The position numbers and the translations under genes were made by a program. 5,946 bases of DNA from a virus (taxonomy: Duplodnaviria > Heunggongvirae > Uroviricota > Caudoviricetes): the IMG/VR virus record IMGVR_UViG_2667527717_000003; one strand, written 5' to 3'. Position 1 is the stretch's first letter. Every line of letters starts with the position of its first letter. Of this stretch, positions 88 through 5,946 are shown piece after piece. The notes beneath the pieces are model-generated. The model did no database searches and was not told the DNA's origin. It saw nothing but the letters and a program-made list of their open reading frames with translations.

Positions 88-1200
88 TTGGGAAAATGGC
101 AGAGTGANNGCACNNNNNGNNNGNNNGAGCATCGGCATAAGAAGATTGCTGAGACGACAGGCTATAAGCCCGGTGCGGGACGTATTATCGAGCGTTTCGA
201 CGGGCGGTTTGAGATAAACGAATTTTATATGCCTGAGCATCCACGTACAGCGGATACAAGTAAGGTGTCCACGTTCCTTAATCATATGGCGTATCTGGTA
301 CCTGATGCCTGGCAGCGCGAGTTTTTCATCGCCCGTCTGGGGTGGATGGTTCAGCGTCCGGAGCGTCGATGCCCGATTTCTATTCTGCATGTGGCTTCCG
401 CACATGGTACGGGCAGAGGATGGGTCAGCCAGTTAATGGAGCGCGTGCTTGGTCCGTGGAACTGTGCTCGTACTCGCATGAAGATCCTGTGCGATAACCA
501 GTTCCATGACTATCTGTACAATACGCTTCTATGCACCATTGACGAGGTGCGCGAAAATGATAAGCGGTATGAGGTGAACGATAAGATCCGTGACGTGCTG
601 ACAGAACCACGGTTTGAAGTGAACCGCAAATATGGCAGCAAAAAAACGATGGATATATACACCGGCTTTCTGTTCTACACCAACCACTTTGATGCGCTGG
701 CGCTGCCAGAGGAAGACCGACGTATCGCTGTGCTGGGGGGCCCTGACTTCGCCGCAACTGAAGAGCATTACGCCAGCCTGTACGGTGCGCTAAGCGACAG
801 CGACTTTATCGCCCAGGTGTACTGGTATCTGATGGGCGTTGACCTGTCTCGCTTTAACTGGCAGCGCGCCCCCGAGACGAAAGAACGCCTTCTGATGATT
901 GAAAGCAATAAGAGCGATGTGGAGGCTGCTCTTATTGAAATCCTGGATAATCCGCCTGTGCCAGCAATGACTTATCAACAAATTGTTAACGCAATACTGG
1001 CAGAAGCAGGAATGGATGTAGAAATTAACCAGAAGCATATTACTCGCATTTTGAAAGAAAGAACAAAGCGGGAACCCGTACGCGTAAAAATTGACGGGTT
1101 TGTATATAGGATTTGGATTCTTGTAAAAAATAACGATTTCAGCAACGAAGAATTGCGCGAAATATATAAATCTTGCGAAATTTTGCAATCTGGATTGTAA
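88..1200 (+). CDS. P-loop NTPase with SF3-helicase-like motif order (D5 / P4-alpha primase-helicase C-terminal domain-like) and an AT-rich C-terminal putative DNA-binding domain; probable replication initiator/helicase. 5' boundary unresolved.
   Basis: 370-codon ORF ending at TAA 1198-1200. Glycine-rich loop HVASAHGTGRGW followed by a Walker-B-like hhhhDE block (LLCTIDEV) and a motif-C-like block (IRDVLTEPRFEVNRKYGSKKTMDIYTGFLFYTNH). Codon usage looks coding from ~128 onward. Start is uncertain: TTG at 88 has no obvious RBS, the first ATG is at 229, frame 1 has a TAA at 4-6, and frame 2 is open from the window start to 217 with N-masked bases at 108-127 in between. Confidence 0.6.
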   Translation: MGKWQSXXXXXXXEHRHKKIAETTGYKPGAGRIIERFDGRFEINEFYMPEHPRTADTSKVSTFLNHMAYLVPDAWQREFFIARLGWMVQRPERRCPISILHVASAHGTGRGWVSQLMERVLGPWNCARTRMKILCDNQFHDYLYNTLLCTIDEVRENDKRYEVNDKIRDVLTEPRFEVNRKYGSKKTMDIYTGFLFYTNHFDALALPEEDRRIAVLGGPDFAATEEHYASLYGALSDSDFIAQVYWYLMGVDLSRFNWQRAPETKERLLMIESNKSDVEAALIEILDNPPVPAMTYQQIVNAILAEAGMDVEINQKHITRILKERTKREPVRVKIDGFVYRIWILVKNNDFSNEELREIYKSCEILQSGL

Positions 1201-1202
1201 AA

Positions 1203-1466
1203 AGGTGACGGCTAGGTGACGGCAAAACGCTTAAGCGTCACCTTAAAAAGTATATATAAAACAATGGGAAATGTGCTAAAGGTGACAGGTGACGGCAGAA
1301 TTTAAAACTATATACGCGATAGTGTGTATTTTAGGTATTATACGATCGCTTATATATAGAGAACTAAAATCAACCGTCACCTGTCACCTAAAACATCTTC
1401 AGGCCTTATATGGCGCGCTTTGCAGCAGGTGACGGATATGTAATTACGCGTCACCTAGCCGTCACC
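1203..1466. repeat. Array of ten GGTGAC/GTCACC sites (extended consensus AGGTGACGG), five direct and five inverted, mirror-symmetric about position ~1335 and flanking an AT-rich core; candidate iteron/origin or multi-site operator region
   Basis: Direct GGTGAC at 1204, 1215, 1281, 1288, 1428; inverted GTCACC at 1237, 1376, 1383, 1450, 1461. The 17-bp block 1204-1220 (ggtgacggctaggtgac) is the exact reverse complement of 1450-1466; the 16-bp block 1280-1295 is the exact reverse complement of 1374-1389. AT-rich core 1296-1373 carries tatata runs. Spacers between mirrored sites are not themselves palindromic. Confidence 0.8.
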
Positions 1467-1515
1467 CGGAAATTAACTTGAAAAAATTAGCAAATAACTA
1501 AATGAGGATACGACG

Positions 1516-1806
1516 ATGTCAAAGATATTCCGCCAATGTATGCCTTACGGTATCCGCAAAACAGCTGAGGGGGCTTGGGAAGCATTCAACAGAGACTACC
1601 AGCCCTTAGGGGAGGCTTTTTTCTTCAAAAGAGCACTAACGCAGGCCACTCGAGATGTGTTGGCGCCACCGCCGGTAACTCAGCGCGACGACTGTGTATG
1701 GCTGTATAGCGATATCGAGCACCCGATGCACTCTGAGGCTTACTGGAAAGCGTATTGCCAGCGGCTTAAACATCTTTCTAACCTCAAAATGAAAGATGAA
1801 CGGTAA
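1516..1806 (+). CDS. hypothetical phage protein, 96 aa, function unknown
   Basis: ATG at 1516 preceded by GAGGA (1504-1508) at ~7 nt spacing; TAA at 1804-1806. Lies directly upstream of Q with a 25-bp gap, same strand. No family recognised by eye. Confidence 0.65.
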   Translation: MSKIFRQCMPYGIRKTAEGAWEAFNRDYQPLGEAFFFKRALTQATRDVLAPPPVTQRDDCVWLYSDIEHPMHSEAYWKAYCQRLKHLSNLKMKDER

Positions 1807-1831: not shown

Positions 1832-2254
1832 ATGCGTGATATTCGACTGGTTTTAGAGCGATGGGGGGGCTGGGCTGCGAGCGAAGGTTGCAGTGTCTAC
1901 TATCCACCTGTTTCCGCTGGATTTAAGAATCTGCTACCTGCAACGCAAGCCGGGCGGCTGAAGTGCAGTGACAATGACGGTCTGATCATCAGCTCTGCTA
2001 TGAACTGCCTGAAGAAAAAAGATCCGTACCTGTGTACGCTCCTTGAGTGGCATTACATCCAGGCGATGCCTGTGAGGGCTATGGGTGTGAAGCTCGGCGT
2101 ATCACACACTCAAGTTCTGAAGAGGCTCCAGGCTGCAGAGGGATTTATCGACGGCTGCCTGGCTATGCTGGACGTGGTTCTGGAAATGGATCAAGCAGTT
2201 CAGTCAAAGCCTAAGGCTATCAGGACTTTGCGAAGGAGCTGCCCGGCGGCATAA
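1832..2254 (+). CDS. Q: late-gene antitermination protein Q (QuuD / small-Q family of lambdoid phages)
   Basis: 140 aa. N-terminus MRDIRLVLERWGGWAA, AGFKNL, and C-terminal LQAAEG...LAMLDVVLEMD follow the pattern I recall for E. coli prophage QuuD-type Q proteins (MRDIQMVLERWGAWAA...AGFKGL...LQKAEG...ALDIRLEMD). GAGG at 1820-1823 sits 8 nt before the ATG. Position immediately upstream of the lysis cassette is canonical. Confidence 0.85.
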   Translation: MRDIRLVLERWGGWAASEGCSVYYPPVSAGFKNLLPATQAGRLKCSDNDGLIISSAMNCLKKKDPYLCTLLEWHYIQAMPVRAMGVKLGVSHTQVLKRLQAAEGFIDGCLAMLDVVLEMDQAVQSKPKAIRTLRRSCPAA

Positions 2255-2660
2255 TATCCAGTAATCAATCACGTAAGGGAATCAGATGGTATTCAGGATT
2301 GCCGTAAACACCTGACGGCTTCAGGTATCAAGGTAAGATAAAAAATAGTTGTGGAATTCCAAAAAGCCGATTAGCCTGATATCTGTTGAAAACAGTTCAT
2401 CACGAAGAGGCTTCCGCAAGGGGGCCTTTTTTATTGCCCCATTCTGGGGAAAAGTTAATAAAACAGGGCTTTCGCTGCGAAAAAACGCTATGCAGTTTTT
2501 GCCCTTTTTTATGCACCTTTTATTCACTCGAATTTCGTCATTCTGGACCACTTAAGTTGATTAAATAGGCCTTTCATCGCAAATCTATTGCGAGCGGGGA
2601 TCGTGTGGTTCCTATAACGTACATTATGTTAAATAACTTCCTTTTTTAACAAATTTAACA
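2255..2660 (+). promoter_or_regulatory. Q-to-holin intergenic late-control region, expected to hold the late promoter (PR'-equivalent) and the Q utilisation (qut) site; exact promoter not resolved
   Basis: ~400 bp AT-rich non-coding DNA between Q and an intrinsic terminator. Several weak sigma70-like candidates, e.g. CTGACG(2312-2317)-N16-TAAGAT(2334-2339), TTGCCC(2434-2439)-N16-TAATAA(2456-2461), TTGCCC(2499-2504)-N16-TATTCA(2521-2526). Only small TTG/GTG-initiated ORFs without RBS in this stretch. Confidence 0.35.
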
Positions 2661-2686
2661 AGGTTCGCTATGGCGAACTTTTTTTG
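2661..2686 (+). terminator. rho-independent terminator (tR'-equivalent, the likely target of Q antitermination)
   Basis: Stem GGTTCGC (2662-2668) / GCGAAC(T) (2673-2679) with 4-nt loop TATG, followed directly by a T7 run (2679-2685). The reverse complement lacks a T tract, so it is + strand only. It lies ~100 nt upstream of the holin start, as in lambda PR'-tR'-S. Confidence 0.7.
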
Positions 2687-2786
2687 TATTCAGGGCCCAC
2701 CGAAGGACGGCTCATAACCCAATCCTACGGGCGTATACGCAGGGCCCGCCTTTCAACAACACCCCGTAATGGCGGAGGTGGGAAGT

Positions 2787-3128
2787 ATGAAAATGCACAA
2801 TGCTCCTCATTCCTGGCCTGACTTACTGGAACTCTTACAAAGTTGGTGGCGTGGAGATACGCCGTTGGGCGCAGTGGTTATGTCAATTGTTATGGCTGGC
2901 TTGCGCATTGCCTATTTTGGCGGTGGCGGCGGCTGGAAACGAAAAACGCTTGAGATTTTGCTCTGTGGTGCTCTGACGCTGACTTTTGCATCCGCTCTTG
3001 AGTATGTCGGATGGCCTAAATCGCTTTCTGTTGCCATTGGTGGTGGTGTTGGGCTGATCGGTGTCGATGCTATTCGTGGGGCTGCAATGCGAGTAATCGG
3101 TAACAAGTTTGGTGGCTCTAAGGAGTAA
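2787..3128 (+). CDS. holin, class I (three predicted TM segments) with lambda-S-like dual-start motif Met-Lys-Met; the longest ORF would start at ATG 2769
   Basis: GGAGGTGGG (2775-2783) lies 3 nt before ATG 2787; ATG-AAA-ATG at 2787-2795 gives MKM. Three hydrophobic stretches (LGAVVMSIVMAGLRIAYFGG, TLEILLCGALTLTFASALEY, SLSVAIGGGVGLIGVDAI) and a charged C-terminus. Stop TAA 3126-3128 is 3 nt before the endolysin ATG. Confidence 0.85.
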   Translation: MKMHNAPHSWPDLLELLQSWWRGDTPLGAVVMSIVMAGLRIAYFGGGGGWKRKTLEILLCGALTLTFASALEYVGWPKSLSVAIGGGVGLIGVDAIRGAAMRVIGNKFGGSKE

Positions 3129-3131
3129 TTC

Positions 3132-3608
3132 ATGCAGACACTAAATTCCCAACGTAAAGCTTTCCTGGATATGGTGGCATGGTCAGAAGGAACGGATAAC
3201 GGGCGACAACCGACACGTAATCACGGTTATGACGTTATCGTCGGAGGTGAGTTGTTCACTGATTACTCCGATCACCCTCGCAAACTTGTCACGCTAAACC
3301 CGAAGCTTAAATCAACAGCCGCAGGCCGGTATCAGCTTCTTTCACGCTGGTGGGATGCCTACCGCAAGCAGCTTGGCCTGAAAGATTTTTCGCCAGAAAG
3401 TCAGGACGCTGTGGCGCTGCAGCAGATTAAAGAGCGTGGCGCTTTACCGATGATTGACCGTGGCGATATTCGTCAGGCAATCGACCGTTGCAGCAATATC
3501 TGGGCGTCGTTACCTGGTGCAGGTTACGGTCAGTATGAACATAAAATCGGTGACCTGATTTCCAGGTTTAAAGATGCTGGTGGGGTGGTAAATGAAGCTG
3601 ACTTATAA
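3132..3608 (+). CDS. R: endolysin, lambda R-type lytic transglycosylase
   Basis: 158 aa. From memory, the translation is nearly collinear and near-identical with phage lambda R (shared NQRKAFLDM.AWSEGTDNGRQ.TRNHGYDVIVGGELFTDYSDHPRKLVTLNPKLKST.AGRYQLLSRWWDAYRKQLGLKDFSP.SQDAVALQQIKERGALPMIDRGDIRQAIDRCSNIWASLPGAGYGQ), including the catalytic Glu in WSEGT. AAGGAG RBS at 3120-3125. Confidence 0.95.
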   Translation: MQTLNSQRKAFLDMVAWSEGTDNGRQPTRNHGYDVIVGGELFTDYSDHPRKLVTLNPKLKSTAAGRYQLLSRWWDAYRKQLGLKDFSPESQDAVALQQIKERGALPMIDRGDIRQAIDRCSNIWASLPGAGYGQYEHKIGDLISRFKDAGGVVNEADL

Positions 3609-4116
3609 GATTGTCATCGCGGCATTTTTCTTCTCTGCCTTTGGGGCGCTCGTCTGGTCTGCAAACCATTACCACAGCAAGTATCAGGCAGAAAAGTTGC
3701 GGGCTGATAAAGCGGAAGGTGAAGCTGAATATCAAGGGAAAGTGATAGCTAATCAGGCATTAAACTTCAATCGTTTTAACCAGATAGCAGAAAACGCAAG
3801 CCGATTAAATTCTCTGGTCGACATCGGTCACGAGAAGACAGTCATCAAATACCGTGAGGTTCTGCTCCGTGAAAAGAACTGTGATTTCCCTGTTCCTGCT
3901 GATATTGCTGTCGGGTTGCTCAACTACGCGAACCGTTTACGCGCCAGCGCATTGCACGCCGATTCCGGGTACATTGACCCAGCCGGTGATCGTGCCACTA
4001 CCACCAGAACGTTGACATATTGCCAGGCTGTTCTGTGGATTAACCCATTGTTGGCAGCCATCGAGAAGGCGAATAACCAGTTGGCTGGTGTCCGACAAAT
4101 AGAACAGTCCCGGTAA
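3592..4116 (+). CDS. Rz: Rz-type inner-membrane spanin (i-spanin)
   Basis: 174 aa. Start overlaps the endolysin 3' end by 17 nt. N-terminal TM segment (IVIAAFFFSAFGALVWSA), a long charged, helical-looking middle region, and a C-terminal periplasmic segment with Cys. Position after the endolysin and the embedded Rz1 frame support the call. Confidence 0.85.
   Translation: MKLTYKIVIAAFFFSAFGALVWSANHYHSKYQAEKLRADKAEGEAEYQGKVIANQALNFNRFNQIAENASRLNSLVDIGHEKTVIKYREVLLREKNCDFPVPADIAVGLLNYANRLRASALHADSGYIDPAGDRATTTRTLTYCQAVLWINPLLAAIEKANNQLAGVRQIEQSR
3869..4015 (+). CDS. Rz1: Rz1-type outer-membrane lipoprotein spanin (o-spanin), embedded in the +1 frame of Rz
   Basis: Not in the ORF track (48 codons). 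GTG at 3869 with GAGG (3856-3859) ~9 nt upstream. Translation MKRTVISLFLLILLSGCSTTRTVYAPAHCTPIPGTLTQPVIVPLPPER: positive n-region, hydrophobic core, lipobox LSGC, then a Pro-rich mature part with a second Cys. TGA at 4013-4015, entirely inside Rz. Confidence 0.7.
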   Translation: MKRTVISLFLLILLSGCSTTRTVYAPAHCTPIPGTLTQPVIVPLPPER

Positions 4117-4177
4117 TAGCATTACAGAAGCTCTTCCAGGAGGGGCTTCGATAATGACCTGATAACTGGAAAATAAA

Positions 4178-4752: not shown

Positions 4753-5946
4753 ATGCCGTTACCATTCCCCTTCGATTTTAAACATCCTGATTACCAGATG
4801 GTTTTTGAATGGCGGATGGAACGCCTACAGCGCATTCGCCAGAATCCTGAAATATTGCCTGCACTAAAACAGTTTTACCGAACCAATCCGGCTCAGTTCA
4901 TCATCGACTGGGGCATGACAACGGACCCGCGTAATATTGATTATGGCCTGCCGGTGACCATTCCGTTTTTACTCTTCCCTAAGCAGGAGGAGTGGATCCA
5001 CTGGATTATGGAACGCTGGGGCAATCGGGAGAATGGTATTACCGAAAAATCCCGTGAAATGGGGCTCAGTTGGACCGCGATCGGACTGGCATGTTCGCTT
5101 TGTCTCTTCAACAAAGAAATGGTTATCGGTTTCGGCTCCCGTAAAGAGGAATACGTCGACAGCACCGGTGACCCGAAAGCATTGTTCTGGAAGGCGCGCA
5201 AGTTCGTGGAAACACTGCCTGTAGAGTTTCGCGGTTCGTGGAGCGAGAAGAAGCACGCGCCATATATGCGTGTTGAGTTTCCTGAAACTGGTGCCGTTAT
5301 CAAAGGCGAGGCTGGCGATAATATTGGTCGTGGTGACCGTACCACGCTTTATCTGGTTGATGAGGCTGCATTCCTTCAGCGTCCTCTGCTGATTGATGCG
5401 GCGTTGTCACAAACGACGCGTTGCCGTATCGACCTGAGTTCAGTTAACGGCATGGCTAACCCGTTCGCTCAGAAGCGTCATGGCGGGAAGATACCGGTAT
5501 TCACATTCCACTGGCGGGATGATCCTCGCAAGGATGAAGAGTGGTATCGCAGGGAATGCGAGAAAATCGATAATCCGGTGGTGGTGGCACAGGAACTTGA
5601 TCTGAACTACAGCGCATCAGCGGAAGGCGTCCTGATTCCATCCGAATGGGTACAGGCTGCCGTTGATGCGCATATCAAACTGGGTATCCAGCCAACAGGC
5701 AAACGACTTGGCGCGATGGATGTCGCCGACGAAGGCAGGGACAAAAATGCCTTTTCCACCCGTCATGGCTTCCTCCTGGAAAATGTGCGGGAATGGTCCG
5801 GTGTGGGCAGCGACATTTATCAGTCCGTCAAGAAGGTTTTCGGCTTTTGCGAACAGGACAACCTCGAAGAGTTTCGCTTTGACGAGGACGGGCTGGGCGC
5901 TGGCGTTCGCGGCGATGCACGCGCTATCAACGAACTGCGTAACGCT
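4753..5946 (+). CDS. terL: terminase large subunit, N-terminal ATPase domain and start of nuclease domain; 3'-truncated by the window end
   Basis: Frame 1 is open from ATG 4753 to the last base (398 codons, no stop), so it is absent from the complete-ORF track. Deviant Walker A ([16 protein letters not shown]), Walker B ([11 protein letters not shown]), and an acidic-rich region downstream. The minus-strand ORFs 4941..5345 and 4969..5256 are antisense shadows of this gene. Confidence 0.85.

Follow-up and report, generated by a model that had tools for sequence, protein, structure and literature searches.

The analysed stretch of DNA (5946 nt, hereafter the window) consists of two parts. The part from base 127 onward matches four deposited Escherichia phages and prophages of approximately 30 E. 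coli genomes with 100% identity. Positions 1-113 correspond to a fragment of the E. coli ynfF gene, with matches in approximately 5300 E. coli genomes, and they merge into an N-filled junction (108-126), in which the Ns stand largely at positions where ynfF and the phage sequence disagree. The segment 1-126 lies outside the element and represents unrelated sequence joined to the phage, as is evident from the genome matches and from the phage sequence at the junction. Owing to the chimeric make-up of the window, the boundaries of the first open reading frame in an earlier annotation made from the letters alone (88-1200; hereafter the sequence-only reading) are wrong: they are an artefact of the junction, and the true gene comprises 753 codons.

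The order of genes in the phage record ON470588 is a divergent S24-type repressor, cro, the 753-codon gene, an array of repeated sites, an ORF of 96 codons, and the antiterminator gene Q, followed by the lysis genes and the terminase. The array is located at approximately 14.2 kb in this record. The left arm of the phage codes for a family-A DNA polymerase, a SNF2-type helicase, a DUF2800 nuclease, and an Enc34-type single-stranded DNA-binding protein (SSB). In a collection of 50,697 phage records, close relatives of the 753-aa protein (at least 99% identity) are present in four records only, and all other matches are below 60% identity. A literature search with the names of these phages returned no publications.

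The segment 127-1200 (plus strand) is the 3' part of the 753-codon primase-helicase gene, namely 357 codons and the stop codon, as established by domain, PHROG, and structure matches. In the matching phages, the full-length protein combines a Prim-Pol primase domain (PF09250), a DUF5906 (D5-like SF3) helicase domain (E = 6e-14), and a predicted winged helix. Of these, the N-terminal Prim-Pol domain falls outside the window, and the part inside it encodes the helicase and the C-terminal winged helix. The assignment of the upstream gene to SF3-type NTPases, already made in the sequence-only reading, agrees with the identified D5-like helicase domain. The 753-aa protein also matches phrog_1156, annotated as DNA primase, and its sole sequence relative in PDB is the primase-helicase of NrS-1 (6k9c).

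In the AlphaFold2 model of the last 357 residues (mean pLDDT 89), the helicase core is followed by a canonical winged helix and a terminal helix. The winged helix (916-1197 including the terminal helix, plus strand) has the topology H1-S1-H2-H3-S2-S3, predicted at pLDDT 85-92, and is the candidate origin-binding domain; it coincides with the region, approximately residues 290-370 of the truncated ORF, where DNA binding had been guessed to reside. The helices comprise model residues 264-274, 283-294, 302-313, and 340-356, and the strands residues 280-282, 318-322, and 325-331 (residue i corresponds to window position 127 + 3(i - 1)). The wing hairpin (model residues 314-333, or 710-729 of the full-length protein; 1066-1125, plus strand) is the proposed determinant of specificity, as suggested by the protein tails of the site classes described below and by a near-isogenic relative whose differences start at 1068; it contains the tripeptide F-V-Y (1099-1107), which partitions by site class. 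A Foldseek search with the model retrieved NrS-1 6k9c (E = 2.5e-18), the SaPI initiators PriRep5 (7ola) and PriRep1 (7pds) with E-values of approximately 1e-9 to 1e-8 and TM-scores of 0.5-0.6, as well as the PrimPol of ASFV and the poxvirus D5/E5 proteins. On the strength of the model, the initiator is a predicted hexameric AAA+/SF3-like helicase of the D5/Rep fold.

The primase-helicase gene is immediately followed by an array of repeated sites (1203-1466), recognized by site counts, by inverted repeats, and in relatives, and proposed here as a replication origin. The hexamer GGTGAC occurs 14 times in the window, compared with 2.15 expected occurrences, and none of 200 shuffled sequences reached this number. 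Ten of the 14 copies lie within 1204-1466, five on each strand, with starts at 1204, 1215, 1281, 1288, and 1428 on the plus strand and at 1237, 1376, 1383, 1450, and 1461 on the minus strand. The full site is the 9-mer AGGTGACRG; two of the ten copies are GGTGACGC, and the first 9-mer begins 2 nt past the stop codon of the primase-helicase gene. The sums of start and end positions of the mirror pairs are 2670, 2670, 2670, 2669, and 2669, so that the five direct and five inverted copies form five concentric pairs with an exact dyad about position 1335, approximately, just as the sequence-only reading had described them. The two perfect inverted repeats that it listed, of 17 bp (1204-1220 and 1450-1466) and 16 bp (1280-1295 and 1374-1389), are likewise present.

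The array is composed of two outer blocks, two inner tandem pairs, and a core. The left outer block (1203-1243) contains a site at 1204-1211 (plus strand) and a palindromic pair at 1215-1222 (plus) and 1235-1242 (minus); it is delimited by the repeats, and its offsets of 7, 18, and 38 are kept in approximately 40 loci. The left inner tandem pair (1280-1295, plus strand) is formed, with a spacing of 7 bp, by 1281-1288 (GGTGACAG) and 1288-1295 (GGTGACGG), and its offsets of 84 and 91 are conserved. The right half was delimited by repeats and relatives: the right inner tandem pair (1374-1389, minus strand) is the mirror image of 1280-1295, and the right outer block (1427-1466), consisting of a palindromic pair at 1428-1435 (plus) and 1448-1455 (minus) and a site at 1459-1466 (minus), mirrors 1203-1243.

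Between the inner pairs lies an AT-rich core (1296-1373), the proposed melting region. The GC content of 1300-1379 is 27-30%, compared with 40-55% in the surroundings, in agreement with the earlier description of this part as AT-rich. The core contains an imperfect inverted repeat, CTATATACG at 1308-1316 and TTATATATAG at 1350-1359, which is the same whatever the site class, and a GATC at 1344-1347. The statement that the spacers between mirrored sites are unrelated in sequence holds for the outer spacers, A-rich on the left (1244-1279) and GC-rich on the right (1390-1426), but not for the inner flanks and the core, which are partly symmetric: the arms 1280-1314 and 1355-1389 are 80% complementary, and the arms 1309-1323 and 1342-1356 are 87% complementary. 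No DnaA boxes were found in the array, and their number in the whole window is at chance level. The Rfam search yielded sub-threshold chance matches only, the miRNA model over the palindrome reaching 27 bits where the gathering score is 107. An ORF of 47 codons within the array (1289-1432) was disregarded, because the spacers drift freely among related loci.

Protein searches followed by locus retrieval yielded approximately 40 loci with full-length relatives of the primase-helicase (46-100% protein identity); repeating the search with the C-terminal half brought in only 13 proteins and contributed little more. Among loci with proteins of 58-100% identity, approximately 40 in number, the ten sites stand at near-fixed offsets from the last codon, namely 7, 18, 84, 91, and approximately 232 for the sites on the plus strand, and 38 and approximately 178, 185, 252, and 263 for those on the minus strand. 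The 8-mer itself changes between loci, and it does so at all ten sites together, giving six classes: GGTGACGG, GGTGACAG, GGTAACAG, GGTGGCAG, GGTGTCAG, and GGTTGCAG. The 46%-identical relative from Limnobaculum has TGACACAG in a comparable layout. Two loci deviate, one (L107) having no array and another (L016) only half of it, and both may be defective prophages. Within a class, the site columns are 98.3% identical (1227/1248), compared with 75.5% for the core and 65% for the other spacers. The comparison of related prophages that had been suggested in the sequence-only reading thus came out in favor of conserved binding sites: site spacing is kept base-exactly and spacer sequence drifts. The difference between 98.3 and 65% identity shows that the sites are under selection.

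A relative of class GGTGGCAG (L080), which is near-isogenic with the window phage as checked from the last approximately 700 nt of the gene through the 96-aa ORF, delimits the segment that changes together with the sites. In a comparison of 1400 nt, 110 differences fall within window positions 1068-1462, whereas the flanking segments contain two differences (498-1067) and none (1463-1837). The swapped unit therefore consists of the wing, the terminal helix, and the array; it starts right after helix 3 and ends inside the last site. The only part of the primase-helicase that switches along with the sites is the last stretch of approximately 40 codons. Helix 3 is unchanged among the E. coli-type classes GGTGACGG, GGTGGCAG, and GGTGTCAG.

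Within the wing, the tripeptide that follows the invariant wing-turn glycine partitions by class across independent backbones. It is FVY in class GGTGACGG, IAQ in class GGTGACAG, MGY, IGY, or IAY in class GGTAACAG, MTV, LTV, DTL, KKE, or DTV in class GGTGGCAG, CTN, FTN, or STQ in class GGTGTCAG, and KTE in class GGTTGCAG. The relation between tripeptide and motif is not one-to-one in distant lineages, as KKE and MTV both occur with GGTGGCAG. The joint inheritance of wing and array could partly reflect the linkage of adjacent segments, although the boundaries of the exchanged unit are the start of the wing and a point inside the last site. Since the divergence of L080 covers the wing and the array and leaves the 96-aa ORF identical, the array is most plausibly an iteron origin whose sites correspond to the C-terminal wing of the initiator. 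The proposal of a phage origin to which the upstream initiator binds gains strong comparative support, in that all ten sites switch with the last approximately 40 codons of the initiator gene.

The same layout recurs beyond the DUF5906 lineage. A sister lineage combines the same Prim-Pol N-terminus with a VapE-type helicase, and its origins share the layout but are built from different motifs, for instance TACTCAACCT in the locus L108. The motifs of these VapE-type loci co-vary with a C-terminal wing of the form G-K-x-x-[KR]-[VI]-[WF], and the core of their arrays is similar (TATACGCG...). A further example is pW47-1, an 8.9-kb circular element that was deposited as a Proteus plasmid and has no Q gene. 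Its sole annotated candidate replication gene codes for a DUF5906 protein, approximately 30% identical over the C-terminal half, and a mirrored CGGTTACAA array surrounds an AT-rich core approximately 300 bp downstream of this gene. The element lends indirect support to the view that such a gene and array could suffice for autonomous replication.

Taken as a whole, the array most probably serves a temperate E. coli myophage as its origin of replication, with the upstream primase-helicase as the initiator. This reading builds on the observed anatomy of the array, the selective conservation of its sites, the concerted switching of sites and wing, and the predicted fold, which relates the protein to self-loading initiator-helicases. 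As the gene order suggests, early rightward transcription after induction, through cro and then the primase-helicase gene, would yield the initiator, whose winged-helix domains would bind the ten AGGTGACRG sites. Judging from covariation, residues of the wing (approximately 714-729 of the full-length protein, especially F721-V722-Y723) would discriminate positions 4, 5, and 7 of the site. If SaPI Rep and other SF3 initiators are a guide, two helicase rings of opposite orientation would form on the mirror-image arms of five sites each, one on either side of the AT-rich core of approximately 80 bp, and the core, with its class-independent motif CTATATACG...TATATAG, would be melted. The gene content further suggests that the Prim-Pol domain would prime synthesis and that the family-A polymerase and SSB of the phage would extend it.

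The design of the array is that of the known SaPI/PICI-type rep-ori module, of which it would be a new member rather than a new principle. SaPI origins consist of 6-12 iterons located directly after the rep gene, with an AT-rich centre that has half of the iterons, in opposite orientations, on each side, and they are read by a C-terminal winged helix of the initiator, a self-loading hexameric helicase whose specificity varies among elements (PMC9371898). The window resembles them in its ten iterons directly downstream of the initiator ORF and in the AT-rich centre (27-30% GC) between five and five sites of opposite orientation. At the level of the predicted fold, the window protein resembles 7ola and 7pds, with sequence similarity below detection. 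The system differs from SaPIs, which are satellites, in that the element is a temperate phage of a Gram-negative host, in that a Prim-Pol of the NrS-1/DUF5906 type is fused to the helicase as its primase, and in that the sites are 8-9 bp long and stand in a fixed 5 + 5 exact mirror layout.

A further comparison is offered by the PICIs of Gram-negative bacteria. E. coli PICIs have been described as "always" having two sets of iterons that flank an AT-rich region downstream of pri, and in E. coli a plasmid replicates from a PICI pri-ori segment (PMC6092414). The replication genes known from PICIs include some for DUF5906 proteins (PMC10111431). Set beside the published description of such elements (e.g., EcCICFT073), the window shares the E. 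coli host and the location of the origin downstream of the primase gene. PICIs, however, are satellites, whereas the module in the window is flanked by cro and Q in a prophage of full size, as part of its early right operon. A literature search for DUF5906 in connection with origins returned papers on PICIs and PICMIs only.

ORF904 of pRN1 comprises Prim-Pol, SF3 helicase, and winged helix, with the origin 3' of the gene, and similar arrangements have been noted in bacteriophages (PMC4234260). The window protein has the same order of three domains, and in both cases a large dyad-symmetric element, the origin of pRN1 and the proposed origin of the window, lies just 3' of the gene; the pRN1 origin, however, is described as a stem-loop of approximately 100 nt that lacks iterons, in contrast to the discrete repeated sites and non-complementary spacers of the window. 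The origins of SV40 and other polyomaviruses and of papillomaviruses are likewise served by an SF3 helicase-initiator (large T antigen and E1, respectively), which acts on short repeats in inverted pairs beside an AT-rich element and assembles as two head-to-head hexamers. The differences are that these viruses are eukaryotic, that their origin-binding domain is unrelated and N-terminal to the helicase, and that the core has only four pentamers. In lambdoid phages, the specificity of the initiator and the sequence of the iterons co-vary, and the origin is crossed by early rightward transcription. Unlike the intergenic iterons of the window, those of lambda lie inside the O gene, and the O protein is not a helicase, the host DnaB being recruited through P. 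In the phage record, neither an O gene nor a P gene is annotated.

The location of the array invites a reading in terms of transcription, in which the initiator, by occupying the ten sites, would halt transcription running on from the early operon into the 96-aa ORF and Q, or set its timing. The array lies between an early replication gene and Q (1832-2254, plus strand; Phage_antitermQ, E = 8e-41), and early rightward transcription must traverse it to reach Q. It is also followed, regardless of the next gene, by a conserved block (AATTAACTTGAAAAAATTAGCAAATAAC; 1470-1500, plus strand), which is found after a VapE-type array as well. This block is not a consensus sigma-70 promoter, and scans of 1200-1470 for sigma-70 promoters and intrinsic terminators found none. 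Moreover, the array stays with the initiator gene when the downstream genes are replaced, it occurs in the small circular element pW47-1 despite its lack of Q, and a roadblock needs neither an AT-rich core nor mirror symmetry. Transcriptional control could be a secondary function of the array, but as its main function it appears unlikely.

A second alternative derives from satellite phage P4, to which the sequence-only reading had drawn a link through a shared GGTGA. The iterons of P4 are indeed TGTTCACC, 8-bp type-1 repeats present in both orientations, and they occur in crr, located directly 3' of the alpha gene, whereas the true ori is 4.5 kb away from crr. By this precedent the array would be an auxiliary cis element that binds the initiator and stimulates an origin elsewhere. 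There is a likeness in layout: alpha is a multifunctional primase, helicase, and origin-binding protein, and crr follows its gene as the array follows the primase-helicase gene. However, P4 has two separated cis sites, whereas the 42.7-kb phage record has no other GGTGACRG cluster, eight of its 13 exact matches lying in the array and the other five being scattered singletons. In addition, an AT-rich core that carries a conserved palindromic motif is part of the array itself, and SaPI and PICI origins of the same layout suffice together with the rep gene. An auxiliary role of this kind is hence quite improbable.

The P4 link itself found no support. P4 alpha and the window protein show no sequence similarity in BLASTP (E = 0.32), and no P4 alpha structures are among the PDB sequence matches of the window protein. 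The primase of alpha is of the bacterial Toprim type (PMC4234260), whereas the window protein has a Prim-Pol of the AEP type. The crr element is a direct duplication of 120 bp, in contrast to the mirror-symmetric array, and GGTGA is common to only two (GGTGACGG and GGTGACAG) of at least six interchangeable motif classes. Membership of the module in the P4 family was rejected on these grounds, namely the dissimilar alpha protein, the different type of primase, the different iterons, and the single cluster.

Binding of the sites by another phage protein, i.e., the product of the 96-aa ORF, Cro, the repressor, or Q, is very unlikely. The 96-aa ORF (1516-1806, plus strand) is the neighbor of the array; domain and PHROG searches gave no family match for it, and from its sequence a role in DNA binding is conceivable. 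An involvement of this ORF, an alternative raised in the sequence-only reading, found no support, as the ORF is 100% identical in two phages of another site class (L080 and L081) and is replaced by unrelated sequence in a phage of the same class as the window (L086). The repressor/cro region likewise differs in a phage with the site class of the window (L079), and the codons that switch with the sites are confined to the end of the primase-helicase gene. Finally, the view of the array as an inverted duplication in decay or a functionless chance repeat, which could appeal to the predicted folding of the region as single-stranded DNA into a long hairpin (z = -7.7), as expected of any inverted duplication, is effectively refuted by the class comparison, because sites are 98% and spacers 65% identical within a class, while all ten sites keep base-exact positions and change in concert across proteins that are 58-100% identical, and the number of GGTGAC copies in the whole window exceeds that of every shuffled sequence.

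With the array read as the origin and the primase-helicase as its probable initiator, both can be assigned in a widespread and uncharacterised group of enterobacterial prophages. The biology itself is unsurprising, because SaPIs and Gram-negative PICIs are already known to follow the same general design; the added value lies in the set of near-isogenic variants of wing and iteron specificity. Such variants, L080 among them, are ready material for studying how the wing sets the specificity of an origin, and near-isogenic pairs may be used for orthogonal replicons in E. coli. At least six specificities are found in the DUF5906 lineage, and about nine further ones in the VapE-type sister lineage. 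Tentatively, the prophage group may carry natural orthogonal pairs of origins and initiators on a fixed scaffold of ten sites, in which a cassette of approximately 400 bp made of wing and iterons is exchanged and the wing, not the recognition helix, reads positions 4, 5, and 7. If this holds, a small residue-to-base recognition code would be at hand that is testable and engineerable, and the switching of specificity would prevent prophages and satellites that reside in one host from firing the origins of one another or hijacking them.

The arrangement of the array recurs among sister replicons (L108, L109-L155, and L011-L015) in which the Prim-Pol N-terminus is up to 97% identical and the helicase is of the VapE type instead. 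The origin layout in these relatives, as in the array at positions 5240-5490 of L108, is the same as that of the window array, whereas the iterons are different (e.g., TACTCAACCT, AGGTGGTTCCA, AGGTTGGTACA, and GGTGGTAACA), and the accompanying C-terminal G-K-x-x-[KR]-[VI]-[WF] motif is a different one for each iteron motif. The block AATTAACTTGAAAAAATTAGCAAATAAC, located 3' of the array at window positions 1470-1500, is conserved across site classes (groups of related loci, each sharing one iteron 8-mer at all array sites), even where the downstream gene is different, and was found 3' of the VapE-type arrays as well. No match to a consensus promoter was observed within this block.

A mirrored array of CGGTTACAA sites around an AT-rich core was also identified at positions 6719-6989 of pW47-1 (L157, NZ_CP104987.1), a circular Proteus mirabilis record of 8.9 kb that encodes a DUF5906 protein with 30% identity. 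Since a tape-measure gene is also present on this record, pW47-1 may not be a true plasmid but a satellite or part of a phage. In phage P4, the crr region (L158, 4291-4590) is built of 120-bp units, each with five type-1 repeats oriented + + - - +. It immediately follows the 3' end of the alpha gene, a position parallel to that of the window array, although P4 alpha and the window primase-helicase are unrelated in sequence.

Two relatives deviate from the common arrangement. The array is wholly absent from L107 (~4058-4130), where the primase-helicase frame is extended by ~25 codons and immediately followed by the antiterminator gene Q, while only its right half is present in a locus of an Arsenophonus endosymbiont (L016, ~5241-5460). 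Both are possibly defective prophages.

The left end of the window is chimeric: positions 1-113 correspond to E. coli ynfF, Ns are present at positions 108-126, mostly where ynfF and the phage mismatch, and the phage gene enters at position 127 in the middle of a codon run. The ORF 88..1200, which the sequence-only reading had taken for the upstream gene, is therefore an artefact, and the true gene has 753 codons. The record of phage ON470588 (L001) ends with the host genes yfhH, pgpC, and tadA (40486-42739), and thus includes flanking chromosome; a protein with a TIR-like domain is annotated amid its replication genes (3105-3866).

Downstream, the interval between Q and the holin gene (window 2255-2768) comprises 500 nt without an annotated gene and is the expected place for a Q-dependent late promoter and its terminator. 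Terminator-like hairpins were found here at window positions ~2400-2437, with a weak, sub-threshold match to ctRNA_p42d, and 2660-2691.

Within the array, the core contains an imperfect inverted repeat (window 1308-1316 and 1350-1359) that is independent of site class and takes the form CTATATACG ... (C)GTATATAG in relatives. The GATC at window 1344-1347 is conserved in the E. coli/Salmonella lineages, and alternating CG/CA runs replace the core in Xenorhabdus. The long spacers are asymmetric, the left one (window 1244-1279) being A-rich and the right one (1390-1426) GC-rich. The latter carries a GCCTTA motif (window 1403-1408) conserved in most site classes, which, together with the asymmetry, hints that the array may include a direction-specific accessory site.
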